From an uncultured Fibrobacteria bacterium (lineage in GTDB: Bacteria > Fibrobacterota > Fibrobacteria > UBA11236), in the NCBI GenBank assembly GCA_963716395.1, contig OY970309.1, positions 2,281,365 through 2,345,364 on the forward strand: DNA of 64,000 bases. The letters run 5' to 3'. Both the position numbers and the translations under genes were made by a program. Position 1 is the stretch's first letter; every line of letters begins with the position of its first letter. Under the pieces are notes generated by a model. It was not told where the DNA came from. It searched no databases and saw only the letters and a program-made list of their open reading frames with translations. Shown here in pieces: positions 44,211-63,177 of the stretch.

Positions 44211-45013
44211 TGATTATGAAATTTATCGCCTTTAACCGCTCTAATTTGTTAATCACGCTTTTAGCGGTTGGAATTTATTGCCCGAACCTATATGCTGCGG
44301 ACTGGGGCAGTCTGCGTGGAAACAATCGCAGCAGCGGTGCTCGCATGCAATCCGCGCCGCGTCCACAATCACAGGGGAGCCGCCAGCCGGAAATCCGCCA
44401 GCCGGAGTCGGCTCGGCATTCCGAGCCACAGGCTCGTCCGGAACAGGCGCGTCAGGATATGCAACCACCGCGTCGGCAACCGCGTCCCATTGCATACGTG
44501 CATCCCGCGCCGGCGCAGGTGAACCAGGCGCGAGCTGAGGAGTCAGACCGGGAGCGGATGGATGTCGCCCAGGAACAGCGGCAATCCTACTTCTGGTCCG
44601 ATTACCACAAAGGAATGCGGATGAACCGGTTGCCAGACGGCTACCGTCGTTTTCACGTCCATGATCACGACTATTTTTATTTTGAAGGCGTCTTTTACGA
44701 CGATGAATCGTCGGGCTACGAAGTAATCGCTCCACCGGTAGACGTGGAAATTTCAGATTTGCCCCCGGGCGCGGAAACGGTGGTTGTAGATAACACTATT
44801 TATTGTTATGCAGCCGGAGCCTTTTACCTGCAACAACCGGACGGAGGCTATCTTGTCGTGGCACCGCCAATGGACGCGACCGTATCATTGCTTCCCCCGG
44901 ACGCGGCTGAGGTAATCACCAACGGAACAGTTTATTATCTGGCCGATGGAACCTATTACATGCCGGTCATCGAAAACGGTGCGACAGTTTACCTTACGGT
45001 CCCGCAACCCTAG
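44210..45013 (+). CDS. Secreted hypothetical protein with a Gln/Arg/Pro-rich N-terminal region and a Tyr-rich C-terminal repeated domain
   Basis: Signal peptide MIMKFIAFNRSNLLITLLAVGIYCPNLYA. QPE(I/S)RQP-type repeats. Paired motifs (IYCYAAGAFYLQQPDGGYLVVAPP, VYYLADGTYYMPVIENGATVYLTVP). Translationally coupled to 43407..44210. Confidence 0.55.
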   Translation: MIMKFIAFNRSNLLITLLAVGIYCPNLYAADWGSLRGNNRSSGARMQSAPRPQSQGSRQPEIRQPESARHSEPQARPEQARQDMQPPRRQPRPIAYVHPAPAQVNQARAEESDRERMDVAQEQRQSYFWSDYHKGMRMNRLPDGYRRFHVHDHDYFYFEGVFYDDESSGYEVIAPPVDVEISDLPPGAETVVVDNTIYCYAAGAFYLQQPDGGYLVVAPPMDATVSLLPPDAAEVITNGTVYYLADGTYYMPVIENGATVYLTVPQP

Positions 45014-45190
45014 TCATTGTCGCGCGTGGATCACTGAGCACTATAGGCAAAAGGTTACACATAGGTTACGTATCCACTTTGTGTCCCTTTTTACGGACGC
45101 GATGGCAGGATTCGGTTTGGTTTGAATACCGGCAGCCGACCAAAAAAATTTTTAGATCGCTTTTATCACGCTGAATTCGGGATTTGGAAA

Positions 45191-45263
45191 TGAGCCAGGA
45201 GGGATTTGAACCCACGACCCACGCCTTAAAAGGGCGCTGCTCTACCAACTGAGCTACTGGCTC
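45191..45263 (-). tRNA. tRNA-Lys (anticodon UUU), 73 nt, no encoded CCA
   Basis: Manual fold. Perfect 7-bp acceptor stem GAGCCAG/CTGGCTC. D-stem GCTC/GAGC with G18G19. Anticodon stem GCGCC/GGCGT and loop CUUUUAA (U33, A37). T-loop TTCAAAT. One U-U mismatch in the T-stem. Confidence 0.85.
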
Positions 45264-46313: not shown

Positions 46314-48883
<2,570 letters not shown>

Positions 48884-48887
<4 letters not shown>

Positions 48888-50290
48888 GGAAGCTCCCTTT
48901 CCAAAGGTTTGGCCGCGGCGGCCTTTTCCCAATCCGCCTCCGGCGCTTTGGCGAAATGAAACTTCGCCAATTTGCTTTTGAGGGTGGGCAGGGGAATGTT
49001 CAAAAGTTGGGCCGCCTTGGTTCGGCTGCCGTCGCAGCGCGCCAACGCCTCTTTGAGCACGCGCTCTTCCGTGCGATCGAGAAATTCCGGCAGCGAACTT
49101 TGTCCCCAGTCGAAGGCGGGAACCCGGCCTGCGGCGTCGACGAGATTGAGGGGCAAGGCGGAGCGATCGATTTTTCCGTCGCGGTTGAGCAGCACCAGGC
49201 GTTCGATGACGTGCTCCAGTTCGCGCACGTTGCCCTCCCAGTTATGCCGTAGGAAAATTCCCAGGATCTCGTCGGAGAAATCGAGTTTCCGATCCGGGGA
49301 ATATTTCCGCAGGAAATGATCCACCAAAAGAGGAATATCCTCGGACCGTTCCCGCAAGGGGGGGATGCGGATTTGTAACACGTTCAGGCGGTAATACAAA
49401 TCCTGACGGAAGGTTCCGTTTTCCACCAGCCGGGCCAAATCTTTCTTGGTGGCCACCAAAATGCGCACGTCGGCGTGCAACGTCTCTTCGCCGCCGACGC
49501 GTTCGAATTTTCCCGTCTGGGTGAAGTTCAGCAGCTTGACCTGGGTCTCCATGGGAATGTCGTCGATTTCGTCGAGGAACAAGGTGCCTTTGTGCGCCAT
49601 TTCAAAGCGGCCTTTTTTCTGGCGCACCGATCCCGTGAAGGCGCCTTTCTCGTGACCGAACAGTTCCGATTCCAACAGTTCGCGCGAAAGCGCGGCGCAA
49701 CTGACCATGACGAAGGGATGGTTGCTGCGGCGGCTTTGGTAATGGATGGCTTCGGCCAGCACGTTCTTCCCCGTGCCGGTTTCGCCGTAGATGAGCACGG
49801 TGGAGTCGGCCGCCGCCACGATCCCGGCCAGGTCGAACACCGCCCCCATGGCCGGCGACCGCGCCAGCATGTTGCCGAAACTGCGGTCGGAATCGTGGCA
49901 GCCGCGGCGCTCCCGGGTTTCCTTGCGGATGCGAATGGTTTCTTTTACGTGCCGGATGATGCCCATCAGTTGTTCGATTTCAAAGGGCTTGCGCAGATAA
50001 TCGACCGCGCCGTTCTTCAGGATTTCAATCGCCGATTGAATGGTGGCATGCGCCGTCATCAGCACAAATTGCGTGGCCGGGCAATTCGCCTTGACGAATT
50101 CCAGCACTTTCGGACCGTCGATGCCGTCCATGACCATGTCGCAAATGACGAGGTCGAAGTCGCCGGCGCGCAGACAGGCCACCGCTTCTTCGCCGGTGGC
50201 GACGGCGGTCACGCAGAAACCCGCATCCCGGAGTTCATCCTCCAAAGCCAGGCGCAGGCTTTTTTCATCTTCGGCGATCAAGATGTTCAT
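48884..50290 (-). CDS. Sigma-54-dependent response regulator (NtrC family)
   Basis: Receiver domain MNILIAEDEKSLR...DLVICDMVMDG. AAA+ sigma-54 activator motifs GETGTGKNVLAEAIH and GAFTGS (GAFTGA-like). C-terminal HTH. ATGA overlap with the upstream kinase gene and a 4-nt overlap with hppA. Confidence 0.9.
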
Positions 50291-51735
50291 ACGGCGGACT
50301 CCGCCGGAAAGGTGAGGGCCAGCACGCTGCCGCGCCGGCCTGCGCGCGCTTTCAATTCCAGGCTGCCGTGATGGGCCTTGACGATCCCAAACGAGACGTA
50401 CAACCCGAGTCCGGTGCCCTTCTTGCCTTTGGTGGTGAAAAACGGTTCACAGGCTTTGGCCGCGATTTCAGGGCTGACGCCCGATCCGTCGTCTTCGACG
50501 GCGATGCGGTAATGACCGTCGCTGCGGCCCAGGGAAATCCAGATGTTGCCGTCGCGTCCAATGGCGTCGATGGCGTTGATGACGCCGTTCACGATGACCT
50601 GCACCAGATGCGATTTCACGCCCGACACCATGCAAAGCTCGACGGGAAGATCGAGGTGCAGGCGCAAATTGTTGCGGTGCAGGCGCGGCTGCACCAGCTT
50701 CACGGCGTCGTGGATCACCGACTGGAGATCCACGGGAAACTCCTCGCGCTCGGATTCCTGCGCGTAGTTGAGCAAATCGCCGACCACCCCCTGGATATGG
50801 TTGGTGGCTTCGGAAATGAGGTCGAGGTATTCGCTTTGCCGCGCCTCCAGCCGCGGCGATTTTTGCAACCGGCGCACGCACATCTGGATACCGGCGATGG
50901 GGTTGTTGATTTCATGCGCCATGCCGGTGGCCAAGGTGCCCATGCTGGCCAGCCGTTCCGTCTCCAATATTTTCGCATGGGCGTTTTTGTAATCCCGATC
51001 GGTTTCGTTGATCCGCTCCATCATGGATTCGAATCCCCGCGCCAGCAGGCGCAACTCGTCGTTCAAGGGGCTTTCGATGCGGGGCATGGGGCCGCCGGGT
51101 ACAAAGGCGTCGAAGCCTTGGAGGATTTTATAAATGGGCTCGGAGATGAAATGCGAAAACAGCAAGGCGCCGCTTAACCCGAGGATCAGAAAGGCCAAGG
51201 TCATGGCGGTCATGGCGTAGCCGACCTTGCGCGCCTTGACGAGGGCCGAGGCGTCGTCGACGCCCACCGCCAGGCTGCCGAGGCGGCCGCCATCGAGCAA
51301 GGCGGTTTGCTGCTGAATGGCCACCCGGCTTTTGCCCACCTGCACGCGGTCTGGGCTTCCGGCGTTATGCACGGAGAACAGCGCGGGCGGGACCTGGTTT
51401 CCGGAAAAGGCATGCGCCACGATTTTTCCCTCGGGATCGAATACCAGGATGTAGAGAATGTCGGGATCGCGCTGCTTGACGGCTTCGATCAGGGCGCTGA
51501 CGGAAGGGAGATGGAGGTTGGAGGTTTGCAGCATCGCGGCCACCTGGTGTTGCAGGACGCCCGCGATCAAATCGGCTTTGTGCCGCATCTCTTCTTCGGC
51601 GGTCTTAAGAACGAAGGTGTAGGAGATGTAAAGATTAATGGCCCCGAAGAGAAGAATGGTCCCGGTCATGGAGACCATGAATTTGACGCGGAGGGGGATG
51701 AACCGCTTCCCGAGCCACGCTTCCGGCCATTTCAT
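50287..51735 (-). CDS. Sensor histidine kinase (membrane sensor, HisKA + HATPase_c)
   Basis: H-box TGMAHEINNPIAGI and ATPase boxes (N: IDAIGRDGN; G1/G2: EDDGSGV, GTGLGLYVS). Two TM helices flank a periplasmic domain. Start chosen as ATG 51735 (MKWPEAW...); alternatives exist. Confidence 0.85.
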   Translation of the reverse strand: MKWPEAWLGKRFIPLRVKFMVSMTGTILLFGAINLYISYTFVLKTAEEEMRHKADLIAGVLQHQVAAMLQTSNLHLPSVSALIEAVKQRDPDILYILVFDPEGKIVAHAFSGNQVPPALFSVHNAGSPDRVQVGKSRVAIQQQTALLDGGRLGSLAVGVDDASALVKARKVGYAMTAMTLAFLILGLSGALLFSHFISEPIYKILQGFDAFVPGGPMPRIESPLNDELRLLARGFESMMERINETDRDYKNAHAKILETERLASMGTLATGMAHEINNPIAGIQMCVRRLQKSPRLEARQSEYLDLISEATNHIQGVVGDLLNYAQESEREEFPVDLQSVIHDAVKLVQPRLHRNNLRLHLDLPVELCMVSGVKSHLVQVIVNGVINAIDAIGRDGNIWISLGRSDGHYRIAVEDDGSGVSPEIAAKACEPFFTTKGKKGTGLGLYVSFGIVKAHHGSLELKARAGRRGSVLALTFPAESAV

Positions 51736-51837
51736 CCACCTGTGCACGTCGCGCCGCCTCCGAGGTTGCCGCGTTTTTCTTCGCCCCGACCTCCATCTCC
51801 GCACCGTTCCTGGCCGATCGGAATCCTCCCCCCATCC

Positions 51838-53382
51838 CTACTTCTTCCACTCGGGAACGATCTCGTAGACGATGGCGGCGATGAAGCAGAGCATGATGCC
51901 CCCCACGCAGAGGATCGGGCTGAAGGGAAGAATCGGATCGAGATACGCTTTGGTCCCGAAGCGGGCCGAGAGCAAGAAACCGGCCACCGCCAGGGAAAGG
52001 CCCAAGATCAAAGTGATTCCGAAGCAGGTAAGGCGGCGCAGATGGCTAAGGTGGCTTTCGCCCAGTTTGACCTGCAACGCCGGCAACTCATGGGCATGCA
52101 TGTTCAGCGGGACGATCGGGAAGATTTTCATGAAGCCCATGTACACCATGATCGCCAGGGCCGTAAGGCCCGCGATGATGGAAACTTCCACCCAGGAGGG
52201 ATGATAGAAGCCGTGGCGGTAAGGCAGCAAAGTGCCGAAGGTTTGCGAAGGCACGATGATGATGAAACGCTTCAGAATGCAGGAGACGTTCACCAACAGG
52301 CCGGCGAAAACATGCAGCCCGATGTTCGTGATCCCTTTCAGGTATTGAAAGAAAATGATCAGAGCGGAGATGAGCAAGCCGCCGACCGTAATCCAGAACA
52401 ACGGCGCATAGACACCATTGGTCACCTGTTGCGCGACCCGGGTTTCGATCAACGGGGCGGCATAATGTTCGGTGAGTTCTTCGGCGACCATGAAATAGAT
52501 GTAAACGCCGCAGAGAATCATCATCAACAGACCCAGCCATTTGAAGGCTTTGGGAACGATGACCTCCTGCAAATTCAGGAACTTTCGGACCAAGGCCATG
52601 ATCACCATGATGAAGCCGGTTCCGGAAATTCCGGCCATGACCACGAACCCGGGTGCCTGCAGGGCCGTGAACCAGCCGGGGCGGGCCGATTGGAGTCCAA
52701 AAATGAAGCCCAAAGTGGAATGCGCGGTGATGAGCAAGGGCAGGATGAAAAGCGAAAGCCAGAAGCTGGAGTTCGCGTGCCGGTTGAAATCCTCGGGCCG
52801 GGGCTGAAAGCCCATGGCCCAGATCTTATAGAACATGCGCAGGGGCGGGAACGTGGCGCGGGTGGCGAGGTAGGCAGCGTCTTCGCGGGCCGAGAGATAG
52901 AAGAAGACCATGCTGGAGAAGAGGTATCCGGCCGCCACCATGGCAAAGTCGCCGAAGAAGGGAGAAAGCGGACGGGAGTAAAGCGGAAAGTTGATGATGC
53001 CGTGAATCGGCCGTCCGAGATCGGCCAGGATGGCGACCGCACCCATGGTCAAGATGATGATGGTCATCAGCTCGGCCATGCGCGCAATGGGTTTCAGGTA
53101 GGAGATTCCGAACAGGCGGATGGTGGCCGAGATGGTGATGCCCGCAAAACTGACACCTACGAAGAAAACGTTGAAGATGACGTACAGGCCCCAGGTGGAT
53201 CCACCCACCCCGATAGTGCGCATGTTGGTGACGAGTAAACCGTACAAGACCTGGCGGGAATAGGCATAAACGCCGACGGCAAAGATCAGAAACAGTACGG
53301 CCATGATGGCCATCCAGGTCGGACTGAATTTCATCAGCCCCAGGGGAACCGGTTGGGACGAATCTTCATTGAACATTTCCAT
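51838..53382 (-). CDS. NrfD/PsrC-family polytopic membrane subunit (ActC/QrcD-like quinone-interacting subunit, about 514 aa)
   Basis: Ten or more TM helices and the NrfD-family pattern. Start MEMFNEDSS at 53382 overlaps the upstream FeS gene stop (TGATG). The ORF-track N-terminal extension is R/P-rich junk. Confidence 0.8.
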   Translation of the reverse strand: MEMFNEDSSQPVPLGLMKFSPTWMAIMAVLFLIFAVGVYAYSRQVLYGLLVTNMRTIGVGGSTWGLYVIFNVFFVGVSFAGITISATIRLFGISYLKPIARMAELMTIIILTMGAVAILADLGRPIHGIINFPLYSRPLSPFFGDFAMVAAGYLFSSMVFFYLSAREDAAYLATRATFPPLRMFYKIWAMGFQPRPEDFNRHANSSFWLSLFILPLLITAHSTLGFIFGLQSARPGWFTALQAPGFVVMAGISGTGFIMVIMALVRKFLNLQEVIVPKAFKWLGLLMMILCGVYIYFMVAEELTEHYAAPLIETRVAQQVTNGVYAPLFWITVGGLLISALIIFFQYLKGITNIGLHVFAGLLVNVSCILKRFIIIVPSQTFGTLLPYRHGFYHPSWVEVSIIAGLTALAIMVYMGFMKIFPIVPLNMHAHELPALQVKLGESHLSHLRRLTCFGITLILGLSLAVAGFLLSARFGTKAYLDPILPFSPILCVGGIMLCFIAAIVYEIVPEWKK

Positions 53383-54263
53383 CACACTTCCTTTTTTTCC
53401 AGCCCCAAAGATTTTTCCTTGCGCAGGAAATAAACCTTGGGCCGGGTTCCGAGGTCTTCGAGCAATCGTTGCGCGCGGGGGCTGGCGGCCAGGCGCGATA
53501 CCAGGCTGTCGGGATCGTTCAGGTCGCCGAAGATGATGGCTTCGGCCGGGCAGGATTGCGCGCAAGCCGGAAGCAATTGCACGTCTTCGTCGGTGAGCGC
53601 GCGGTTTTCGGCCCGGCAATCTTCTTTGAGTTTGCGGATGCGATGCACGCAGAAGGTGCATTTCTCCACCACGCCCCGCGGGCGTGTGGCCACGTCGGGA
53701 TTCAGCGCTTCTTTATAAGTATCGGGCCAGGCAGGCTCGGTCCAATTGAAATAGCGGCGGGAGTAGGGGCAGGCCACCTGGCAATAGCGGCAGCCGATGC
53801 AGCGATCCCAAATCTGGGCGACGATGCCTTCTTCGTCCTGCATGGTGGCGCCGACCGGGCAGACTTTTACGCAGGGGGGATTCTCGCAATGGTTACAAGG
53901 CATGGGCGTCGCAATGGAATCACTTTCTTCGCTGAAGTTCAGCATGGTCATCCAATTGATTTCGGCCCCGGCCTTGCGGGGGTTGTCGCCGTTGAAAGGC
54001 ACGTTGTTCTCGACATGGCAGGCCACCACGCAGGCGCCGCAGCCCGAGCACAAATCGAGATCGATGGCCATGCCCCATTTTGGGCGTTTCCCGGTTTTGG
54101 GGTTGAGGTACACGCCCTTGGATTCGGTTTTCATTTCCTTGGCGACGGCCGCCTGGATCAATCCCGCAAAGGGCAGGGCGGCGATGAGCTTGAGAAAGGT
54201 GTTGCGGGGCATACCTCCCAAGGTTTCTTCCGGCGCGGCGATTTCGGGTTTCGGGTTTTTCAT
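53382..54263 (-). CDS. 4Fe-4S ferredoxin-type iron-sulfur subunit (PsrB/ActB2/QrcC-like)
   Basis: Four Cys clusters: CSGCGACVVACHVENN, CNHCENPPCVKVCP, CIGCRYCQVACP and CTFCVHR. Start ATG 54263 (MKNPKPEIAAPEE) lies 2 nt after the stop of the molybdopterin-subunit gene. Confidence 0.85.
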   Translation of the reverse strand: MKNPKPEIAAPEETLGGMPRNTFLKLIAALPFAGLIQAAVAKEMKTESKGVYLNPKTGKRPKWGMAIDLDLCSGCGACVVACHVENNVPFNGDNPRKAGAEINWMTMLNFSEESDSIATPMPCNHCENPPCVKVCPVGATMQDEEGIVAQIWDRCIGCRYCQVACPYSRRYFNWTEPAWPDTYKEALNPDVATRPRGVVEKCTFCVHRIRKLKEDCRAENRALTDEDVQLLPACAQSCPAEAIIFGDLNDPDSLVSRLAASPRAQRLLEDLGTRPKVYFLRKEKSLGLEKKEV

Positions 54264-54265
54264 AA

Positions 54266-56704
54266 TCAGGCCCTTGCGATGCGCACCCGGGTTCCGCAAC
54301 GAACGGAGTTGCCGCTCAAGGGATCGAAATTCGGGGCGGAAATGGTTCGGGGATTCGCGCCTTTTCCCTGGGCGAACCTTCCGTATTGGGTATGTCCGGC
54401 GCCGAGCTCCATCACGGCCAGATCGGCCGGCACGGTATAGGAAAGCAAGGCGTGGCATTGCAGTCGGCCGATGGGAGACTCGACCCAAACTGGATCGCCC
54501 TGGGACACGCCGAGGCGTCCGGCCGTATCGGGGTGAATGCCCACCCACGACTTCCAACTTTCGGTGGCCCACAAGCCGCGCTGCAATCCCGACAACTCTT
54601 TGAGATAGGGGATATTGGCGCCGCTGCCTTCAGAATAGGTCATGGGCTTGTAGGGAATGAAGAGCAGGGGATAATCGTTCTCCGATCCCGCGAAGCGCGG
54701 TTCCTCGGCATGCGGCAGCAGCGTCGTGGCCAGGGCAGGTTTTCCTAAGGCGGCCAAGGCCTGATCCGGCGTCTGATTTTTCTGTGCCGCCCAGTTTTTG
54801 ATGCGCGTCTCCGCCAGTTGTGAGCGGAATTCGAATTTTCCCGACGGCGTTGTGAAGACTTCTTTCCAGCTTTCCGCCGGCAGCGGATCGTCCTGCCAAT
54901 AGCCGACCTGCGTCAGTTTTTTCATGAAGTCAGCGGGACTCTCGGCCTTCAAGGTGCCGCGTTGGGCGCCGGCGATACCCACCAATCGCTCTTCCATCGC
55001 CGACTGAAAGTCTTTCCACGGGAAAGACGAAGCCACCGCGCCGCCGACGGCTTGTGCGATTTGGATCAAAACATCGCCGCTGTTTTGGGTGTCGTACAGC
55101 GGATCCACCGCCGGACGGCGGATGCCGATGGCCGCACGGAATCCGAAGGGCGGAGGCGTGGCGTCTTCCCAGCGTTCCAGATAGGTGTGGTCCGGTAATA
55201 TGAGATCAGAATAGAAGGCGCTTTCGTCGAGAAAGGGCGCGAAACTGACGATGAAGGGAATTTTTTCGAAAGCCCGGCGATACCGATCCGGGTCGTTTTT
55301 GGCGTACAACGGATTGGAGTAATACAACAGCAAGGCTTCGGTCGGGTAAGGCTTGGCCGCCAGCACGCTTTCCGGTAAAGCATCCAAGGCGGACGCGGCG
55401 AAGGGGAAGCGATCGCGCATGCGGCCGTCCAGCGCCGGTTGCTGCAACCCCGCCTTGGCCGCGGCGTCGTGGATCTCCGCCGCCCAGGCCGACAGCGGCA
55501 GGGGTTTTTTCACCACCATTCCTCCGGGCCGCTCGATTGAACCCAGCATGGCGTTTAGCGCCAGCGCGCAGCGGGCGATGTTGAGGCCGTTGGAAGTGGC
55601 GGTGGAACGGGAATCGACCACCACCACCGCCGGACGCGAAGCCGATAATTCGATGGTCAGTCGGTAAATGTCCTGTTCGGGAATCCCCGTCAAGCGCGAA
55701 ACCTTGTCCGCCGGATAGTCGTTCAGCAGGGCCGAGAAATCTTCGAAGCCGACGGTATGGGCGGCGACGAAATCGCGATCATACAGATTGTCTTTCAACA
55801 ATTGATTGGCGAGTCCCAGTGCCAGCACATCGTAGGTGCCGGGGCGGATGCGAATCCATTCGTCGGCCACTTCGGCGGTGCGCGATTCGTTGGCCTCGAC
55901 CTGCACGATTTTCGATCGCCGGGTGGGGTTCTCGCGCCGAAAACTTCCGGTGGCGCGCGCGAAGTGAATGCCGAAGCAGGTGGATTCGAAGATCCCGGAT
56001 CCGAGGCTCAGGATATAAGACGTCTTGAGCGCATCGTAGCCGGGAATCTCGGCGCTGCCGGTTCCCATTTCCATGGCTTGCACCAAGGCGCCGTCGCCCG
56101 TCGAGAGGGGATCGAAGAAGTTCGGCGTTCCGTACACGCGGCAGAACCGCTCCAGCATTTCCTTCATGAAGCCCCGCTGCCGGCCGCACAGGACGGCGAG
56201 CTTGTGAGGTTCGCCTTTCGTGCGCAAGGCGCCTAGACGTTGCGAAACTTCGGCGGTGGCCTGATCCCAGGAAATCGGTTTCCACCGTCCCGCGCCCCGT
56301 TCCCCATCTCTTTTCATGGGGCCGCGGATGCGATCCGGATCATAGAGGGTGAACACGCCGGATTGTCCTTTGGGGCCGAGTTTGCCCCCCACCAACAGGC
56401 ATTCGGGGTTTCCGTTGATCTTCACCGCACGTCCCTGCACCACCCGCACCTTGATTCCGCAGTTGACGGGGCATTGTCCGCAAGCCGTGGCGACTTGGCG
56501 TTCTTCGCCGAGATACCAGTGGTCGGATCCGGGAACGGGCGCCTTATCCTCGGCAATAGCGAAAGGATCGGTATGCGGCAAGCAGGCCGAAAGCGTTCCC
56601 GCCGCGCCCAAGGCGCCGGATACCTGCAGAAATTTTCTGCGGGAAAATGATCCGGATTTCACCGGGTTTGACTCCGCGTTATTGGTGGCACGTGGTGCAG
56701 GCAT
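54266..56704 (-). CDS. Molybdopterin-oxidoreductase-family (CISM) large subunit with a Tat signal (PsrA/ActB1/QrcB-like)
   Basis: Twin-arginine motif SRRKFLQVSGALGAAGTLSA. N-terminal FeS motif CGQCPVNCGIKV...C. MopB-family length of 812 aa. Confidence 0.85.
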   Translation of the reverse strand: MPAPRATNNAESNPVKSGSFSRRKFLQVSGALGAAGTLSACLPHTDPFAIAEDKAPVPGSDHWYLGEERQVATACGQCPVNCGIKVRVVQGRAVKINGNPECLLVGGKLGPKGQSGVFTLYDPDRIRGPMKRDGERGAGRWKPISWDQATAEVSQRLGALRTKGEPHKLAVLCGRQRGFMKEMLERFCRVYGTPNFFDPLSTGDGALVQAMEMGTGSAEIPGYDALKTSYILSLGSGIFESTCFGIHFARATGSFRRENPTRRSKIVQVEANESRTAEVADEWIRIRPGTYDVLALGLANQLLKDNLYDRDFVAAHTVGFEDFSALLNDYPADKVSRLTGIPEQDIYRLTIELSASRPAVVVVDSRSTATSNGLNIARCALALNAMLGSIERPGGMVVKKPLPLSAWAAEIHDAAAKAGLQQPALDGRMRDRFPFAASALDALPESVLAAKPYPTEALLLYYSNPLYAKNDPDRYRRAFEKIPFIVSFAPFLDESAFYSDLILPDHTYLERWEDATPPPFGFRAAIGIRRPAVDPLYDTQNSGDVLIQIAQAVGGAVASSFPWKDFQSAMEERLVGIAGAQRGTLKAESPADFMKKLTQVGYWQDDPLPAESWKEVFTTPSGKFEFRSQLAETRIKNWAAQKNQTPDQALAALGKPALATTLLPHAEEPRFAGSENDYPLLFIPYKPMTYSEGSGANIPYLKELSGLQRGLWATESWKSWVGIHPDTAGRLGVSQGDPVWVESPIGRLQCHALLSYTVPADLAVMELGAGHTQYGRFAQGKGANPRTISAPNFDPLSGNSVRCGTRVRIARA

Positions 56705-57263
56705 ATTCCGCCCCTCTTTCCTTGTGGCACGCGATGCACTTGGACATGGTCAAATAGGCGATGTCGGGCTGGGATACCGGTTGCGACACCTTGCGCATGT
56801 CGCGATGGCAATCCCAACATTTCATCTGCCCAAAGACGACATGCGCCCGATGCGAGAAATAAACATGGCCCGGTAACCTGTTCACCACGATCCAAGGAAT
56901 CTCTTTCCCCGTCTTCAAATACTCGCGCACCTTCGCTTCTTCCGGGTTTTTCCCCTGGGGTTCGGAATGGCAATCGGCGCAATCGCGCAACAGGGGCAAG
57001 GTCGCGTGCGCCCCTTTATCCGCGAAGCGATGGCAATCCGTGCAGTCCATGTCTTCGGCTTTGATATGGGCCGCGTGATTGAAGGCCAGCGGTTGCCGCA
57101 CCGCCGGTGGGGGAGACAGGAAATCGATGGCGGAGGCGGGAATGTCTCCCGAGCGATTACACGCTTGGTAGGTCAACCCGATCGCGAGCAACGCGAACCA
57201 GGCCGGGAGAAGGAATTTCCTTTCTCCCCGCCGTCCGCTGAGTTTCCGCTTGCCTGGTTCCAT
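56679..57263 (-). CDS. Membrane-anchored pentaheme cytochrome c (ActA/NrfB-like)
   Basis: Five CxxCH motifs (CTDCH, CADCH, CWDCH, CIACH, CTTCH) in 194 aa. N-terminal TM helix FLLPAWFALLAIGLTY. ATG 57263 with an AGGTGA Shine-Dalgarno. Confidence 0.8.
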   Translation of the reverse strand: MEPGKRKLSGRRGERKFLLPAWFALLAIGLTYQACNRSGDIPASAIDFLSPPPAVRQPLAFNHAAHIKAEDMDCTDCHRFADKGAHATLPLLRDCADCHSEPQGKNPEEAKVREYLKTGKEIPWIVVNRLPGHVYFSHRAHVVFGQMKCWDCHRDMRKVSQPVSQPDIAYLTMSKCIACHKERGAEYACTTCHQ

Positions 57264-57292
57264 GTCGTCACCTATCGGTTTGCCGCGGGGGG

Positions 57293-57709
57293 TTACTTCG
57301 TGGTTGAATTGGCAACATCGTATTTCAGCGAAGCCACCCAGGTTGCCAGCGTATCCAACTCTTCGTCCGACCCCTTGAATTTTTTCTTGTGCTTGTGGCC
57401 GTCCAGCTTCACCTCTTTTTTCAGCCACTTGACAATCCAGTCCTTCTCTTTTTTCTTGCCCACGTCCGACAGATCCGGGGGTTCGATTTTTTTCCCCAGT
57501 AAGGCTTCATCTTCGTCCACGTCCGCGGTGGATTCGTCCGATTTCACCTTGGCGATTTTCAACGCGGAAATCGCATGGCATTGGGTGCATTTATTCTGGA
57601 GAAAGATTTTTTGTCCCGCCGGAACGGCGGCATCGGCCTGTGCGCGCATCGGCGTCAAGCCCGCCAGTAACATTCCCGTTCCGAGGGAGAGCAGCGTTTG
57701 TTTCCACAT
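57293..57709 (-). CDS. Monoheme class-I c-type cytochrome (ActE-like), secreted, with a Lys-rich C-terminus
   Basis: Signal peptide MWKQTLLSLGTGMLLAGLTPMRAQA. Single CTQCH motif. AAGGAA Shine-Dalgarno. First gene of the minus-strand respiratory operon. Confidence 0.7.
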   Translation of the reverse strand: MWKQTLLSLGTGMLLAGLTPMRAQADAAVPAGQKIFLQNKCTQCHAISALKIAKVKSDESTADVDEDEALLGKKIEPPDLSDVGKKKEKDWIVKWLKKEVKLDGHKHKKKFKGSDEELDTLATWVASLKYDVANSTTK

Positions 57710-58115
57710 GGTGAGGTTTCCTTTCCTTCCCGAACCGGGTTGGGTGGTTCGTTTGTCATCCACGACTCAAGCGAATATCGATCCAAATTGTTCCGACTTG
57801 GAATGGCCCGGAGTTTCGGCTTTTTAATGCAACTCAATAGGCAAAGTGGCGAAACGGCAGAACTTTCAAGACAGACTGGCACGAATTTGGTGGGGAGCGT
57901 GCTTTCTCTTCAGGATGAATTTTGATCCCTATCCCGGATGAAATCTCATACGGCCGGGTAAAAATACCGCGAAAGTCGCGAAGCCGGGGTAGTCGAAAAC
58001 TGGACCCTGGAATTTATTTGTAATACCTGTCGCAAGAATGATGCGTTAAACCCGGCGAATGGGGGATGGCATTGATGTTGCTTGTTGCGTAATCGCAGAA
58101 CGGAGAAGCATCGGT

Positions 58116-59324
58116 ATGAAACCCCGTCCTTTACACCAGCCTCTCATCCTTCTCGTCCTGATCGCCGGCGCCGCCCAAGCGGATTACATCAACAGCACCG
58201 TCACCCTTGGAGGGTATGCGTTGGATTCCAAGGACGCGACCAATAGCAACGACTTCTACCAAATGGAACGCGTCAACGTTTCGGCTTTGGAAAACGGCCT
58301 GGATCTACATCTCGCCTACGGCTATTCCGATTTCTATGAAAAGCGCCCCAACACCTATCAGACTTCCAATCGCCTCGCCTTGGCCAATGTCGGATTCACC
58401 CCGGCCGGAATCGACGGGCTGCGCGTCGAAGGCGGACGAGACTTCATGAGCTTGATCGATCGCCCGCTCTACTATGATGGGGCCGAAGCGCGCTATCAGT
58501 ATCAAGGGTTTGTGCAGGCAGAATTGTTCGGCGGCTACGGCGTTCCCACGGTTTATCAAAGCGATCTCGTGGATTTCAATTCGGACAAAGCCCTGATGGG
58601 CGGCAAGCTCACCTTCACCCCGCTTTCCCAGTTGCTCATCCATCTCGACGGCTTGGTCAACGGCCGGCAGGATGACGGAACGCTCGGCGGCGACATTCAG
58701 GGAAGCCTGGGCGACCAGGTCACGGTGTCGGCCAACTCCGTCTACCGGCTGGATTCGAATTACTTCTCCCGGGCGGAAATTTCCGTGCTGGCCAGCGTCG
58801 TTCACCGCGTCCAGTACCAGCTTCGGTTCGGATACCAGGACGAAAAAATCGACTCAACCCGAAACTACGACTATTTCGTCAACCAGGCCCACCAGTACAT
58901 GCTGACGGGGTTCGTGTATTCCTGGAACGAGAAAATCAGCGCCGACGCGGATTACGGGGTGCTGATGTACACCGACACCACGGGCCAACTGGCGGATTTC
59001 AAACTGAATGTCTACGGATTTTTCGTGGGCGTCAGTCAGGAATTTGCCACCGTCACCGACGCCTTCGATTTGACGGCCGGCTACAGCAACACCTACTGGA
59101 GCCGTCTGCGCCTCGACGTGGCGGGAGATTACACCCGCTACGATTTGGATCCGGTCAACATCGGACTGAAAGCCCTCGACTTTTCCGTGGCCCCCACCTA
59201 CTTCCTCGGCCACGGGCTCGAAGCGACCGTGGAGTACGAATATCTGCACAACCGCATCTACGACAGCGACAACCGATTTTACGTCGGGATTAAGGAATCC
59301 TTTTTCAGAGGTCTCTCCAAATGA
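58116..59324 (+). CDS. Outer-membrane beta-barrel protein (about 402 aa), candidate porin of a porin-cytochrome complex (OmbB/MtrB/PioB-like role)
   Basis: ATG 58116 with a GGAGAAG Shine-Dalgarno. Signal peptide MKPRPLHQPLILLVLIAGAAQA. Abundant alternating aromatic/hydrophilic beta-strands (YQYQGF, LRFGYQD, YTRYDLD...). No heme motif. ATGA overlap with the downstream nonaheme cytochrome gene. Confidence 0.7.
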   Translation: MKPRPLHQPLILLVLIAGAAQADYINSTVTLGGYALDSKDATNSNDFYQMERVNVSALENGLDLHLAYGYSDFYEKRPNTYQTSNRLALANVGFTPAGIDGLRVEGGRDFMSLIDRPLYYDGAEARYQYQGFVQAELFGGYGVPTVYQSDLVDFNSDKALMGGKLTFTPLSQLLIHLDGLVNGRQDDGTLGGDIQGSLGDQVTVSANSVYRLDSNYFSRAEISVLASVVHRVQYQLRFGYQDEKIDSTRNYDYFVNQAHQYMLTGFVYSWNEKISADADYGVLMYTDTTGQLADFKLNVYGFFVGVSQEFATVTDAFDLTAGYSNTYWSRLRLDVAGDYTRYDLDPVNIGLKALDFSVAPTYFLGHGLEATVEYEYLHNRIYDSDNRFYVGIKESFFRGLSK

Positions 59325-60073
59325 AGCAAGTAACTCTGCCGTTACTGATTTGGGGAATCGCCCTGGGAGGCGAAACCCACCAGTTCTCCCATTATCAGCA
59401 CGTCAAAACCGAAGGATTGGAATGCACCGATTGCCATATCAAAACCATGGTTTCCACCACCTTGGCCGAGGCGCGGGTGGGATTGACCTTGCAGGCCTGC
59501 GTGAAATGCCATGACGACGATTCCGACTTTCAGACCCCCAAGCCCATTGTGCTGGCCGACCCCAGTTTTCGCCTGGTCCGGTCGGACGATCCCGATTTGA
59601 AATTCAACCACCGGGCCCATGTGCTCGCGAAAGTGCAATGCGCCGCCTGCCATGGAACGATCCTGGATTCGAGCGACACCGGCCATGCGCTGCAGCCGGC
59701 CAAAAACCTGTTGACCATGGAAAGCTGCATGCAGTGCCATGTGCAGAAGGCGCAAGTCGCCTGCCTCACCTGCCATACCAAGGTCGACGAACCCCTCAAT
59801 CATTTGAGCGCGCTGTGGATCCGCAGCATGGGCCATGGGATGCAGGCCAACCTGAACAAGCAAGACTGCTCCATGTGCCATGACAAAGGCTCCATCACCA
59901 CCTGCGCCGAATGTCATATGGGCAACGACGCGCGCAAAGTGCATGGGTTGAACTACCGGTTCAACCACGGCATAGACGTGAAATTCAAAAAGCTGGACTG
60001 CGCGGTCTGTCACGCACCGCTCGATCAATTCTGCGGGGATTGCCACGAAGGCAAGGGAAGGGTGTCGAGGTGA
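59321..60073 (+). CDS. Periplasmic nonaheme cytochrome c (250 aa, 9 CxxCH), MtrA/OmaB-like in heme density
   Basis: Signal peptide MKQVTLPLLIWGIALGG. CxxCH motifs: CTDCH, CVKCH, CAACH, CMQCH, CLTCH, CSMCH, CAECH, CAVCH, CGDCH. Confidence 0.85.
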   Translation: MKQVTLPLLIWGIALGGETHQFSHYQHVKTEGLECTDCHIKTMVSTTLAEARVGLTLQACVKCHDDDSDFQTPKPIVLADPSFRLVRSDDPDLKFNHRAHVLAKVQCAACHGTILDSSDTGHALQPAKNLLTMESCMQCHVQKAQVACLTCHTKVDEPLNHLSALWIRSMGHGMQANLNKQDCSMCHDKGSITTCAECHMGNDARKVHGLNYRFNHGIDVKFKKLDCAVCHAPLDQFCGDCHEGKGRVSR

Positions 60074-60078
60074 AAGCC

Positions 60079-60834
60079 ATGCGGAAGTCGATTGCATACC
60101 CACTCACCGCCGCGCTGCTGGTCCTGGGAGGCTGCAGCAAGCTGGACAATCCGGACAAACCCGACGCCATGGCCTGCGATCTCTGCCACACCACGCCTTT
60201 GGACCAATTCGCGGTGCATCGGCTCCATCTCAGCAACTTGGCCATGGCCAATTTTCCTTACCGGAACACCTCGCCCGACTTCAATTATCCCGTCGACACC
60301 TCCCAGGGGGATTCCACCTACAAGGTCGAGGTGGATACCGCTTTCAGATTCAGCCAGAGCGCCACCCTCGACCAGGCCATGCGCTATCAACAAAACCGGC
60401 TGTTGAACGAAGGGATTCAATGCGTGGACTGCCATCGCGGGTTGGATGGGAGTTTGGTGCAAAACAACGACCCCAATCACCGCAACGGCCGGGAAGATGC
60501 GGATTTCGATACCGTCGCCTTGCTGGAAAAGCATTACGACGCCGTGGACACCGCCCATTTTCTGGCGACCGCTCCGAGCATGTCCTTTGACGGAACCACC
60601 TGCAACAACATGGTGTGCCACGGGGCGGGCCGCAAATCATTACAAAACGTGGTGTGGAATACAGCTCCGAAACTGACCGATACCATGTCATGCCTCGGGT
60701 GCCATAACACCACGAATCATAAAATCGGCGTAAGTTGCGACAAATGTCACTATGACGTTACCCTGGACGGCGGGCAGACCATCCACAACTTTCGCAAACA
60801 CTGGAACGACACCATCTATTACGGCAGGTACTAA
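60079..60834 (+). CDS. Lipoprotein multiheme cytochrome c with four CxxCH sites and one CX4CH site
   Basis: ATG 60079 with a GAGGTG Shine-Dalgarno. Lipobox LVLGGC. Motifs CDLCH, CVDCH, CNNMVCH (C-x4-CH), CLGCH and CDKCH. Confidence 0.8.
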   Translation: MRKSIAYPLTAALLVLGGCSKLDNPDKPDAMACDLCHTTPLDQFAVHRLHLSNLAMANFPYRNTSPDFNYPVDTSQGDSTYKVEVDTAFRFSQSATLDQAMRYQQNRLLNEGIQCVDCHRGLDGSLVQNNDPNHRNGREDADFDTVALLEKHYDAVDTAHFLATAPSMSFDGTTCNNMVCHGAGRKSLQNVVWNTAPKLTDTMSCLGCHNTTNHKIGVSCDKCHYDVTLDGGQTIHNFRKHWNDTIYYGRY

Positions 60835-60870
60835 ATGTCCGGAGAATCTTTTTCTAGAGGAGCGTGGAAA

Positions 60871-62241
60871 ATGAAACAGTTATTGGCTTTACCACTATTG
60901 GTTATCGGCGCAATAACCTTCATGACGGGATGTATGGTGCAAGGCCCTCCGGGCCCTCCGGGGAAGGACGGAACGGACGGGCTGAACGGAGACAGCGCCC
61001 TGGCTTCCTGCATGAAATGCCATTCCGATTCCAACTTCAACATCAAGACCGAACAGTATCAATATTCCAAGCATTTTTTAGGCACGACCGTGGCCCGGGG
61101 CCAGAGCAACCGATTCTGTGCCCGGTGCCATACCAATGAAGGTTTCCAGGAAATCACCTGGAATGGCATGCCCTTCGTCGCCGCCGAAATGCCGAATGCC
61201 ACCAAGATTCAGTGTGCCACCTGTCACACCATGACGGGCTTCGATTTCTCAAACGATACGACGACCATCAATGAAATCTTGCGAACCAATACCCCGGTGC
61301 CCTTGCTGTATCTCAATCAAGTCACCTTATCCGGCTGGACCACCACCAATACCTTCGACTTTTCCCAGGGGGCGTCCAAGATCAATAATTTGTGCGCTAC
61401 CTGCCATCAAATCCGCGGGGCCACGCAATTCACCTACACCGACACGGTGGGAGGCAAGTCGGCCACCAAAGCTTTTGCGCAAATTGCCTACTTCCCGATG
61501 GGCACGGCCATTCTACCCGGCGATACCGCTATCGCGGCCAAAGGGAATCTGAAGCAGCCAGCCGATTCGGTCGCCTATCTAGTGGGAAGAAGCTTCGCGG
61601 TGCATAATGGCAACCAGTCGAACATCTTATACGGAATGAACGGATACGACTTCGGAACGCCCATTGTCACTGGACCGCGGCATCATGCTAAGAGCAATTG
61701 CGTCGATTGCCACATGAATGCCTGGGATTCGACCACGCATACCGGCGGACATTCTCTCATCGTGAATCTCGACGACCCCGCTTGCAACGCCTGTCACAAT
61801 CTCCGAGATACCCTTGCCCAGGATTCGACGGTAGTCTCCGGCTTGCTCAAACAATTGGGCGATGCACTGGCGGCGCGGAAAGTCGCGGTGAAATCGACGA
61901 GTTCCTCCGGAGTGGTATCGTATTCCTTCCTGAACACCCATGATTTCTACGGCAAGCTCTATTCCAACAACCCGGCGGATTCGGCGGTGGTTTACGCCAG
62001 CCTGACCTCGGCGAACAAAACCGATTCGGCCACCGGGGTGATCGACTACATCAATAACGTCACCTATTCGAAGGATTCGAATTTGAAGAATAGAATCGGG
62101 CGTAAGTGGACCTATGGCGAATTGGGCGCCGCTTACAACTACGGGTTCATCAGCTCGGAAAATGATTTAGGCAAGCATAACAGCGACTATACCAAGAAGC
62201 TGCTGCAAGCCTCGATCAATTGGCTCGCCGCCCATCCGTAA
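60871..62241 (+). CDS. Lipoprotein hexaheme cytochrome c with a collagen-like Gly-X-Y segment directly after the lipobox Cys
   Basis: ATG 60871 with a GGAG Shine-Dalgarno. Lipobox FMTGC, then GPPGPPGKDGTDGLNGD. Motifs CMKCH, CARCH, CATCH, CATCH, CVDCH and CNACH. Last gene before a strong terminator. Confidence 0.8.
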   Translation: MKQLLALPLLVIGAITFMTGCMVQGPPGPPGKDGTDGLNGDSALASCMKCHSDSNFNIKTEQYQYSKHFLGTTVARGQSNRFCARCHTNEGFQEITWNGMPFVAAEMPNATKIQCATCHTMTGFDFSNDTTTINEILRTNTPVPLLYLNQVTLSGWTTTNTFDFSQGASKINNLCATCHQIRGATQFTYTDTVGGKSATKAFAQIAYFPMGTAILPGDTAIAAKGNLKQPADSVAYLVGRSFAVHNGNQSNILYGMNGYDFGTPIVTGPRHHAKSNCVDCHMNAWDSTTHTGGHSLIVNLDDPACNACHNLRDTLAQDSTVVSGLLKQLGDALAARKVAVKSTSSSGVVSYSFLNTHDFYGKLYSNNPADSAVVYASLTSANKTDSATGVIDYINNVTYSKDSNLKNRIGRKWTYGELGAAYNYGFISSENDLGKHNSDYTKKLLQASINWLAAHP

Positions 62242-62283
62242 CGAACCCCCCCGCAGGGGACGCAAAGGTCCCCGGTTGTAATG

Positions 62284-62326
62284 AAAGGCTTCAGCCCCCC
62301 CCAGGGCTGGAGCCTTTTGATTTTAC
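62284..62326 (+). terminator. Rho-independent terminator after the cytochrome operon
   Basis: Stem AAAGGCTTCAGCCC / GGGCTGGAGCCTTT (13/14 bp) with loop CCCCCCA, followed by TGATTTTA. It is preceded by a second small hairpin, GGGGAC-GCAAAG-GTCCCC, at 62256..62273. Confidence 0.55.
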
Positions 62327-62508
62327 CCGCCCTGAATCTGAAAATGTGAGCCGAGTCATTGGAGGCCCGGACTTTGCTGTCTTTGGGTGCATGATCAAAT
62401 CGGATGATTTTCAAGACAATCATCTGTCATTAATGCAAACCTACGGACAATTAGACAAATCGAGTGGGGTCGAGAATGCGCCAATCCGCCGCGGTAAAAC
62501 ACTTTAGA

Positions 62509-63177
62509 ATGCAGAACGCCACCAAGCTGCGAATTTTTCTGGGGCTGTGCCTGTCGTTGTTCATGGTGCTGCTTTTCAGTTGCCGGGAAAAGAACGAGAA
62601 GCAGAGTTATTCCGAAGTTCAAGGCTTCGACTCTCCGGTTAAACAGGAAGAGATCAAGGTGCCGGCCGATCTCCCAGCCGATCCGCACGCGGGAATGCAA
62701 ATGCCCGACGGGCAAAATCCCCCTGCGGGCATGGTGCCCGCCCATCCCGCCGGAACTCTGACATGGAAACTGCCCCCGGGTTGGACGGCCCAACCGGGAA
62801 GCGGCATGTTTTACGCCATGCTTACAACCGGTCCCGACGCCAATGCCGGGCAAGTTTCCATCATCGTTTTGCCGGGTGAGGCGGGAGGATTGCCAGCCAA
62901 TGTCGAGCGTTGGTTGGGGCAACTGGGTTTGCAACTCCCCGGCTCCGCCGTACAGAACTTCATCGCCCAGAGCAAAAAGATTCGCACCCAAGGGAACATG
63001 GACCTTACGCTGTTGGATTTCAGTTCCGTGGTCCCGGGTCCGGGCAATTCCATGCTGATGGGCATCACCAAACCCGGCGACGACTCCTACTTCATTAAAA
63101 TGATGGGACCGAAAGCCGCCTTGGAAAGCCAGAAGAAAAATTTCTTGGACTTCTGCAGTTCCTTGGTCCTGAAATGA
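62509..63177 (+). CDS. Lipoprotein of unknown function with a Met/His/Pro-rich segment, translationally coupled to resB
   Basis: ATG 62509. Lipobox LLFSC. PADPHAGMQMPDGQNPPAGMVPAHPAG segment. ATGA overlap with the downstream ResB gene. Confidence 0.5.
   Translation: MQNATKLRIFLGLCLSLFMVLLFSCREKNEKQSYSEVQGFDSPVKQEEIKVPADLPADPHAGMQMPDGQNPPAGMVPAHPAGTLTWKLPPGWTAQPGSGMFYAMLTTGPDANAGQVSIIVLPGEAGGLPANVERWLGQLGLQLPGSAVQNFIAQSKKIRTQGNMDLTLLDFSSVVPGPGNSMLMGITKPGDDSYFIKMMGPKAALESQKKNFLDFCSSLVLK

Follow-up and report, generated by a model that had tools for sequence, protein, structure and literature searches.

Layout of the operon

The locus described here lies in a 64,000-nucleotide (64-kb) stretch of contig OY970309.1 from an uncultured Fibrobacteria bacterium (assembly GCA_963716395.1), which is called the window throughout and to which all coordinates refer. 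Four consecutive open reading frames (ORFs) on its + strand, spanning 58116-62241, encode a predicted outer-membrane beta-barrel and three multiheme c-type cytochromes, and are treated in this study as a candidate porin-cytochrome conduit. The operon consists of the following features.

58116-59324, + strand: predicted outer-membrane 22-strand beta-barrel, 402 aa, with a Sec signal peptide (AGAAQA followed by DY) and no plug domain
59321-60073, + strand: putative periplasmic nonaheme c-type cytochrome, 250 aa, with a type-I signal peptide and nine CxxCH motifs
60079-60834, + strand: lipoprotein pentaheme cytochrome, 251 aa, with lipobox LGGC followed by SKLDNPD, and five heme sites
60868-62241, + strand: lipoprotein hexaheme cytochrome, 457 aa, with lipobox MTGC and six CxxCH motifs
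62283-62326, + strand: intrinsic terminator closing the four-gene operon, with a G+C-rich stem and a U tract

A first-pass annotation of this DNA had described a heme-free barrel of about 400 aa, a 250-aa cytochrome with a signal peptide, nine CxxCH motifs and one heme per about 28 residues, two lipobox-anchored cytochromes with five and six hemes, and a strong terminator at the end of the operon, and motif counts and folding bear out this description. The barrel has 402 residues with no Cys at all and no heme motif. The nonaheme cytochrome has nine CxxCH motifs and 19 His, i.e. about 28 residues per heme, and lacks a lipobox. The terminator hairpin has a 15-bp stem at about 62283-62318, followed by UUGAUUUU, with a folding energy of -30.4 kcal/mol (z = -5.8 relative to shuffled sequences). 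The ATGA overlaps of the same annotation hold in part: the barrel and nonaheme genes overlap by the 4-nt ATGA at 59321-59324, while the nonaheme and pentaheme lipoprotein genes are separated by a 5-nt gap and the two lipoprotein genes by 0 or 33 nt, depending on the choice of the start codon.

Conservation of the gene linkage

Searches with the barrel and with the nonaheme cytochrome returned 22 proteins each, several of them on contigs of the same size. Gene contexts were recovered on nine contigs (L001, the window's own locus, to L006, L008, L010, and L011), which represent seven distinct arrangements; L003 repeats L002. Two of them, L010 and L011, were reached through a profile of distant barrels (at least two proteins returned). 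The contexts are as follows, with the similarity of the barrel to that of the window.

Window/L001: barrel 100% identity; order as in the operon above
L002/L003: barrel 59% identity; same order; in L002 also a lipoprotein-ResB pair downstream
L004: barrel 46% identity; same order; lipoprotein-ResB pair downstream
L005: barrel 67% identity; same order
L006: barrel 57% identity; same order; module like alternative complex III (ACIII) and Qrc upstream and co-directional
L008 (a Fibrobacterales metagenome-assembled genome, MAG): barrel 29% identity, E 1e-53; ImcH-like, CbcL-like, barrel, 9-heme cytochrome, 5-site lipoprotein, Sec-exported 4-heme cytochrome
L010: barrel 21% identity, pairwise E 3e-7, profile E 2e-5; CbcL-like, ImcH-like, 4-heme cytochrome, barrel, 12-heme Sec cytochrome, 7-site lipoprotein, 6-site lipoprotein, CcmF-like
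L011: barrel profile E 3e-9; the barrel stop shares 4 nt with the start of a cytochrome gene with a signal peptide, of which the contig contains the first 150 nt

The gene directly 3' of the barrel encodes a Sec-exported multiheme cytochrome in nine of nine contexts, either overlapping the barrel gene or lying within about 15 nt of it, and lipoprotein cytochromes come next in every context whose contig extends far enough. The first-pass annotation had taken a barrel without co-occurring cytochromes as a sign against a conduit; every context recovered has the opposite arrangement. By pairwise BLAST, the periplasmic cytochrome of the window shares 36% identity with its counterpart in L008 and 30% (E 1e-20) with that in L010. 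The pentaheme lipoprotein has orthologues in L002, L004, L005, and L006 and a homologue in L008 (30% identity, E 5e-14), and the hexaheme lipoprotein has a homologue in L010 (24% identity, E 9e-15). Overall, the barrel, the periplasmic cytochrome, and both lipoprotein cytochromes appear to have been co-inherited down to 21-30% identity. In the recovered contexts, the linkage of the barrel with the cytochromes is strict and ancient.

A further context, L009, was considered and rejected as a member of the family: its 458-aa protein lies upstream of a remote, 333-aa cytochrome homologue, and has no detectable kinship with the barrel family (hhalign probability 0.1%). L002 has one gene more, at 7667-8989 (- strand) between the monoheme cytochrome gene and the barrel operon, for a 440-aa protein without a Pfam match; the window lacks it.

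A rare barrel family

The 22 homologues found in a word-indexed search with the barrel share 46-100% identity with it, and none carries a name or a Pfam domain. When 1.84 billion cluster representatives were scanned with the HMMER profile of the barrel, only 18 proteins were found at E <= 1e-3. The named members among these clusters belong to a Fibrobacteria MAG and to Candidatus Raymondbacteria only, and none of the 18 is named as Geobacter or another known host of porin-cytochrome complexes (Pcc). The earlier guess, made from the letters of the DNA, that the contig belongs to the Fibrobacteres-Chlorobi-Bacteroidetes group is correct: the species-representative genome collection contains three related loci, each under a Fibrobacterota or Fibrobacteres title, and the window encodes a protein with a type IX secretion system (T9SS) tail.

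No Pfam or NCBIfam family matches the barrel at E <= 0.1, and the profile of the barrel family finds no match among PDB sequences, MtrB (PDB code: 6r2q) included. Nothing in these searches joins it to the generic porins, FadL, or OmpA, the grouping that had been named beforehand as adverse to a conduit. Current annotation tools would miss the barrel, since their Pfam and NCBIfam models match nothing in it. Two known types of conduit barrel were rejected as relatives. Membership of the MtrB/PioB family has no sequence match in its favour, and 22 strands are modelled here vs 26-28 in that family; the solved structure of MtrB has 26 strands. A Cyc2-type fused cytochrome-porin would carry its heme on the barrel polypeptide, which has neither a CxxCH motif nor any Cys.

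The AlphaFold model of the barrel, built from a 21-sequence alignment (A1), shows a closed 22-strand barrel with short connections and no plug (mean predicted local distance difference test score, pLDDT, 80). The mature protein has about 380 residues, and by a simple geometric calculation its barrel would be about 40 Å across between C-alpha atoms. In structural comparison, TonB-receptor barrels match best, followed by 24-strand ushers and 18-strand Occ porins; Foldseek against the PDB agrees, with only generic barrels at template modelling (TM) scores of 0.3-0.5. It appears from the model that the protein is of the outer-membrane type, as wide as a TonB receptor and without the plug domain. 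To our knowledge, TonB-receptor barrels are always plugged. Something would have to fill the plug-less barrel, because an empty pore of about 40 Å would otherwise leak.

The most conserved motifs of the barrel family are RPNTY (residues ~77-81) and IDSTRNYDYF (residues ~245-254). Both lie outside the strands, in low-confidence segments that follow odd-numbered strands of the model, and these segments are presumably extracellular or lumen-folded loops. Conservation located in loops would fit a protein-protein interface better than a diffusion pore, and the two motifs are candidate docking sites for a cytochrome.

The cytochromes of the operon

All nine CxxCH motifs of the nonaheme cytochrome are kept in its 22 homologues. 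Its N-terminal half resembles the pentaheme subunit ActA of ACIII (6f0k_A, E 6e-8) and shares 31% identity over 139 residues with the window's own ActA-like protein, which is described below; the 12-heme protein of L010 has the same relationship to ActA. It therefore appears, as far as these alignments indicate, that the putative periplasmic wire derives from a c7/c3 module of the ActA/QrcA type with four extra hemes. The first-pass annotation had compared its heme packing with that of MtrA, MtoA, and OmaB. The comparison stands for heme density and is architectural only: as a DmsE/MtrA decaheme (TIGR03508) the protein scores 21.9 bits vs a cut-off of 192.2 and has nine hemes rather than ten, and this assignment was rejected.

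In the pentaheme lipoprotein, the heme sites are four CxxCH and one CNNMVCH, the latter matching the Pfam family GSu_C4xC__C2xCH (22.9 bits vs a cut-off of 21.7); the protein also matches Pfam Cytochrome_C7. The hexaheme lipoprotein has weak matches to domain II/IV of MtrC/MtrF and to NrfB-like proteins. The residues at position +2 after the lipid-bearing Cys are Ser and Met in the two lipoproteins, in place of the Asp that the earlier annotation had associated with retention in the inner membrane.

Kinship of the hexaheme lipoprotein with the nanowire cytochromes OmcS, OmcZ, or OmcE was rejected, as no PDB sequence matched. A short collagen-like stretch of Gly-Pro-Pro and Gly-X-Y units (GPPGPPGKDG, within GPPGPPGKDGTDGLNGD) occurs after its lipid Cys, at residues ~23-40. 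It is kept in the orthologues of L002, L004, and L005, and could be an extended tether.

The divergent inner-membrane module

On the - strand, next to the operon and divergent from it, lies a module of five genes. Together with a cytochrome c biogenesis gene on the other side (of the ResB type, from 63174), it had already been noticed as an ACIII/Qrc-like neighbour in the first-pass annotation, and both are found where they were claimed. The module, at 51838-57763, contains the following genes.

57293-57763, - strand: monoheme class-I cytochrome c in the ActE position, first gene of the module, with one CxxCH (Pfam Cytochrom_C)
56679-57428, - strand (called gene 56679-57263, 194 aa): ActA/QrcA-like pentaheme cytochrome with five CxxCH
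54266-56704, - strand: molybdopterin-oxidoreductase-like subunit (type of QrcB and the ActB N-terminal domain), 812 aa, with a twin-arginine translocation (TAT) signal
53382-54572, - strand (called gene 53382-54263, 293 aa): four-cluster iron-sulfur (FeS) subunit (type of QrcC and the ActB C-terminal domain)
51838-53382, - strand: NrfD-family quinone-interacting membrane subunit (ActC/QrcD type), 514 aa (Pfam NrfD)

The best PDB matches of the pentaheme protein are ACIII subunit A (8k9e_A, E 6e-23), the best match of the FeS subunit is the C-terminal domain of ACIII ActB (6f0k_B, E 3e-59), and the only matches of the NrfD-type subunit are to ACIII subunit C (6lod_C, E 6e-26). In a crude hydropathy scan the NrfD-type subunit has at least 10 hydrophobic segments. 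The NCBIfam models of QrcA, QrcB, and QrcC are among the top matches as well, all below their cut-offs (112 vs 180, 298 vs 440, and 273 vs 400 bits, respectively), and no QrcD model matches any protein of the module. The monoheme cytochrome gene adjoins the pentaheme gene in L001, L002, L004, and L006.

The molybdopterin-oxidoreductase-like (Mo-like) subunit falls in the Phs/Qrc/Arr clade, below every family cut-off, and can be aligned with ArrA along its whole length and with PsrA along most of it. The Cys that binds Mo in ArrA and PsrA aligns with a Gly (...PLSTGDG...), and the fourth Cys of the FS0 cluster aligns with another Gly. Both losses are kept in the orthologues of L002, L004, and L006 (four of four, with the window). 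The subunit is thus predicted from its alignment to be without a Mo cofactor, and it is probably not a substrate reductase but an electron-transfer or quinone module, because the Mo-ligand and FS0 Cys are missing in the orthologues. A genuine molybdoenzyme of the Psr, Phs, Arr, or Ttr type, with a substrate served by the conduit, was rejected as the main reading because no orthologue has the Mo-ligand Cys or the fourth FS0 Cys. A cofactor-less QrcB/ActB group, tied to penta- or hexaheme cytochromes and to NrfD subunits with 10 helices, has been described (PMC6303296), and the conserved losses seen here are the hallmark of this group.

Overall, the sequences suggest a quinone-interacting electron-transfer complex with a Qrc-like organisation, whose closest known structures are ACIII subunits. 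Like ACIII and Qrc, it combines an ActA-like pentaheme protein, a cofactor-less subunit resembling enzymes with molybdenum-bis(pyranopterin guanine dinucleotide), i.e. Mo-bisPGD-like, a four-cluster FeS subunit, an NrfD subunit, and a monoheme cytochrome c. Unlike ACIII, in which they are fused as ActB, the Mo-like and FeS subunits are encoded by separate genes as in Qrc, and no gene for ActD, ActF, or a further membrane subunit is found within 51838-57763. QrcA is a hexaheme protein; in contrast, the cytochrome of the present module is pentaheme, as in ACIII. Unlike both complexes, the module is genetically coupled to a putative outer-membrane conduit.

This coupling extends beyond the window. 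The ACIII/Qrc-like module is present in the window, L002, L004, and L006, and in L006 it lies upstream of the barrel operon in the same direction, which suggests that rearrangement has not parted the two modules. L008 and L010 have ImcH-like and CbcL-like proteins in its place, quinol dehydrogenases of kinds known as partners in extracellular electron transfer. The ImcH-like proteins are of the NapC/NirT type and have 489-496 aa, six CxxCH and one atypical Cx3-4CH; the ImcH signature has been given as 495-519 aa with an atypical CX3CH and six CX2CH (PMC6295460). The second partner is a fusion of a multiheme c-type cytochrome with an FdnI/HydC-type cytochrome b, which is the architecture of CbcL. 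For ImcH, the published evidence so far points to outward electron transfer only (PMC6295460). Taken together, these neighbourhoods suggest an outer-membrane module that is conserved and a quinol dehydrogenase that is exchangeable. Exchange of the inner partner is expected if the outer module carries electrons that arise in, or end at, the quinone pool.

Comparison with known conduits

A putative conduit cluster has been defined by a periplasmic multiheme cytochrome, an integral outer-membrane beta-barrel, and one or more redox lipoproteins (Jimenez Otero et al. 2018, PMC6148476). All three are found in the cluster from its sequence and the barrel model, the outer-membrane targeting of the lipoproteins being presumed. 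Since the conduits of Geobacter share no detectable homology with one another (PMC6148476), a lack of similarity to them would not argue against conduit function.

By its parts list, the cluster is closest to ExtABCD of Geobacter sulfurreducens (GSU2645-2642): that conduit, too, has one periplasmic multiheme cytochrome, one barrel, and a pair of small lipoprotein cytochromes, of which one is pentaheme (PMC6148476); the pentaheme lipoprotein of the window moreover carries the Geobacter-type CxxxxCH/CxxCH motif. It differs from ExtABCD in that the barrel gene comes first, the hemes number 9/5/6 vs 12/5/12, 22 strands are modelled vs 18 predicted, the host phylum is another one, and an ACIII/Qrc-like complex and putative sigma-54 control (see below) accompany the cluster.

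The Pcc clusters are represented by OmbB-OmaB-OmcB of Geobacter, with relatives in six phyla including Ignavibacterium album, and their porins are predicted to have 18-22 trans-membrane motifs and their periplasmic cytochromes have 5-14 hemes; the defining study required a BLAST similarity of E < 0.01 (PMC4245776). The 22 modelled strands and nine hemes of the window lie inside these ranges, and its gene order, i.e. porin, periplasmic cytochrome, lipoprotein cytochrome, is that of ombB-omaB-omcB, as the first-pass annotation had pointed out. Compared by description only, it has two small surface cytochromes where Pcc has one 12-heme OmcB. With MtrCAB, MtoAB, and PioAB it would share a heme wire in a barrel capped by a surface lipoprotein cytochrome, and the heme density is comparable; unlike in MtrAB and PioAB, there are 22 strands vs 28 predicted for the MtrB family (PMC4245776).

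Proposed function and alternatives

From this evidence we consider it probable that the operon represents a lineage-specific family of porin-cytochrome conduits, which takes respiratory electrons out across the outer membrane and whose design is nearest to Geobacter ExtABCD and Pcc. Every sequence-level prediction of this reading that was tested came out positive, in agreement with the first-pass annotation, which had proposed a porin-cytochrome conduit. We know of no non-diffusive electron route across the Gram-negative outer membrane other than such conduits.

The proposed mechanism can be potentially described as follows. The adjacent ACIII/Qrc-like complex would oxidise quinol at its NrfD-like subunit, and the electrons would pass through the FeS subunit to the periplasmic pentaheme and monoheme cytochromes. 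They would then enter the nonaheme cytochrome, placed inside the lumen of the plug-less 22-strand barrel, and continue to the two lipid-anchored cytochromes with five and six hemes at the cell surface. The final acceptor of electrons from the surface cytochromes would be insoluble or extracellular, for example Fe(III) or Mn(IV) oxide, humics, an electrode, or a partner cell. All of these steps are inferred, among them that the cytochrome sits inside the barrel, that the lipoproteins are exposed at the surface, that the conduit is linked with the quinone pool, and that electrons flow outward. Genes for cytochrome c maturation adjoin the operon (window region, L002, and L004; a CcmF-like gene in L010).

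A nonaheme cytochrome too bulky for the barrel had been named beforehand as a sign against a conduit. With its hemes the mature protein has a mass of 31 kDa and, in a rod approximation, would measure 25-28 Å across if it were 60-80 Å long; the free lumen of the barrel is estimated at about 28-30 Å from the C-alpha diameter of 40 Å. This rough estimate leaves room for threading.

Several points weigh against the outward conduit. The fit of the nonaheme protein in the lumen is tight yet possible, and the size argument is a rod approximation only, the AlphaFold2 model of this cytochrome being unreliable (pLDDT 55) and unused for shape or fold. The barrel-cytochrome complex is predicted from the genes and the barrel model alone, and surface exposure of lipoproteins is not predictable for Fibrobacterota. 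In the Mo-like subunit, a conserved Asp adjoins the position of the missing Mo-ligand Cys, so a cofactor-bearing enzyme is possible. The nearest named relatives of the module work in opposite directions, since ACIII oxidises quinol and Qrc reduces menaquinone. Finally, the genomic scope is 64 kb, so that electron donors, the type of quinone, and other terminal reductases or oxidases fall outside it.

The direction is the point at which the first alternative departs. The same conduit may run inward, taking electrons from Fe(II), a reduced mineral or humics, a cathode, or a syntrophic partner, with the Qrc-like complex acting as a cytochrome c:menaquinone reductase. The module has the gene organisation of Qrc, with separate cofactor-less B, C, and D and a multiheme A, and Qrc is a menaquinone reductase (PMC6303296); QrcA, QrcB, and QrcC are among its best NCBIfam matches, and components of the Mtr type and of the CbcL/MtoC type work both ways in extracellular electron transfer (EET) (PMC6295460). 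The class-I monoheme cytochrome belongs to the module too. Such cytochromes c are often of high potential. Qrc-like organisation together with the class-I cytochrome thus keeps a role in electron uptake alive. Against it, none of the Qrc equivalog cut-offs is reached, three of the four inner-membrane subunits have their best structural relatives in ACIII, a quinol oxidase, and the distant relatives of the barrel and cytochrome adjoin genes like ImcH, which is implicated in quinol oxidation and outward EET only. The outward direction is favoured because of these ImcH-like partners and the ACIII relatives, and uptake is considered unlikely.

The second alternative dispenses with a trans-membrane wire. 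The barrel would be an ordinary diffusion or uptake channel, and the cytochromes, the lipoproteins among them, would stay in the periplasm and distribute electrons between the ACIII-like complex and reductases or oxidases of that compartment. Resemblance of the barrel fold to generic barrels (Occ porins, ushers, TonB receptors), the frequent orientation of Gram-negative lipoproteins towards the periplasm, and the weak similarity of the hexaheme lipoprotein to NrfB, NrfA, and c554-type periplasmic cytochromes would all be consistent with this. However, a plug-less 22-strand barrel with short loops is no known design of a diffusion porin, its most conserved motifs lie in loops and are better suited to a protein interface than to a pore, the family is tiny with a multiheme cytochrome gene next to it in every recovered context, and the whole outer module is kept while its inner-membrane partner changes. 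We regard this alternative as very improbable.

Hardly credible is the third alternative, a conduit feeding a surface catalytic heme protein, with the hexaheme lipoprotein as a reductase for something soluble or colloidal outside the cell (e.g. an oxyanion) rather than for general mineral respiration: such a role has been proposed for Geobacter ExtHIJKL with selenite and tellurite, Geobacter conduits vary in substrate range and surface component (PMC6148476), the hexaheme protein weakly matches the cytochrome c552 (NrfA) and c554 families, and the ActA-like protein weakly matches the ExtN and ExtO models of the selenite/tellurite cluster, but all these matches fall far short of the family cut-offs, the motif count revealed neither CxxCK nor another signature of a catalytic heme, and all three cytochromes have His enough for bis-His ligation of every heme.

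We lean slightly towards a conduit of independent origin that is specific to Fibrobacterota and Raymondbacteria, with a 22-strand barrel family, a nonaheme wire derived from ActA, and interchangeable inner-membrane modules of the ACIII/Qrc-like or the ImcH/CbcL-like kind.

Novelty and implications

Fibrobacterota are regarded as fermentative degraders of fibre and chitin. Characterised conduit families (Mtr, Pcc/Ext) are few, and they come mostly from Proteobacteria and Desulfuromonadia. In the literature searched, no paper contained both a word with the prefix Fibrobacter and 'porin-cytochrome', and the literature on Fibrobacterota with multiheme cytochromes, EET, or iron reduction held nothing that attributes such a system to the phylum. 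The phylum is also unmentioned in the 2014 survey of Pcc (PMC4245776) and in the 2018 survey of quinol oxidases (PMC6295460). While the conduit principle itself is well established, what is new here is the barrel family and its combination with a complex of the ACIII/Qrc-like kind, in a phylum to which EET has not been linked; their functions are predictions.

If the prediction holds, the family would be a further kind of heme-sheathing barrel, and a small and compact one (about 380 residues and 22 strands), attractive for structural work and synthetic biology. Its outer-membrane module would be a portable unit that couples to different quinol dehydrogenases. A phylum regarded as fermentative would have a respiratory outlet to minerals, humics, or partner cells, some Fibrobacterota would join the cycling of iron, humics, or interspecies electrons, and the modelling of their carbon turnover in sediments, soils, and digesters would change. 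More speculatively, polysaccharide or lignocellulose could be attacked oxidatively with electrons that the conduit delivers to the cell surface.

Regulation and neighbouring genes

The following features surround the two modules.

58067-58082, + strand: putative sigma-54-type -24/-12 element TGGCAT-N5-TTGCT, 34 nt upstream of the barrel ATG
50287-51804, - strand: sensor histidine kinase (NCBIfam AtoS/ZraS-like)
48884-50290, - strand: sigma-54-dependent response regulator (NCBIfam AtoC/NtrC-like)
62464-63177, + strand: conserved lipoprotein, 237 aa, rich in Met, His, and Pro (e.g. PADPHAGMQMPDGQNPPAGMVPAHPAG), with no Pfam or NCBIfam match
63174 to the window end (64000), + strand: start of a ResB-type cytochrome c biogenesis gene (PF05140 ResB in the L002/L004 counterpart)

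The element upstream of the barrel has one mismatch to TGGCAC-N5-TTGCW, and the 64-kb window has just one other site with no more than one mismatch; at two mismatches the number of matches in the window is not above chance. The element (TGGCA[CT]-N5-TTGC) recurs before the barrel gene of other loci, at a distance of about 45-48 nt in L002/L003, L004, and L005, a short way upstream in L006, and at -112 in the distant L011. The case for a putative sigma-54 promoter rests on this positional conservation. No such element was found for the divergent ACIII-like operon. A sigma-54 activator also flanks the cluster in L002, L004, and L008. The conduit would probably be expressed from the promoter upstream of the barrel, under the control of the sigma-54 activator and histidine kinase encoded nearby.

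Downstream, a lipoprotein of 235-260 aa and a ResB-type protein also follow the operon as a pair in L002 and L004, with the lipoprotein in between. On the other side, a gene for a membrane-bound H+-translocating pyrophosphatase (46314-48932, - strand) adjoins the sigma-54 response regulator.

The rest of the 64-kb window contains nothing bearing on respiration. At 4563-8470 (- strand), a LolA-like protein, two MacB/FtsX-type permeases, and an ABC ATPase are encoded; together they form a lipoprotein-sorting or export-type system, which may be relevant to the delivery of outer-membrane lipoproteins. The region 37286-45263 has a lower third-position GC content (0.47-0.61 vs 0.65-0.8 elsewhere) and ends at a tRNA-Lys gene (45191-45263, - strand). 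It encodes DUF2092, DUF6515, EamA, and DUF347 proteins together with a 626-aa protein of WXXGXW repeats, and may be an integrated island. Two adjacent giant genes at 9749-22680 (- strand) encode proteins of 3165 aa and 1145 aa with Laminin_G_3, DUF2341, and beta-helix domains, which are probably secreted or located at the cell surface.

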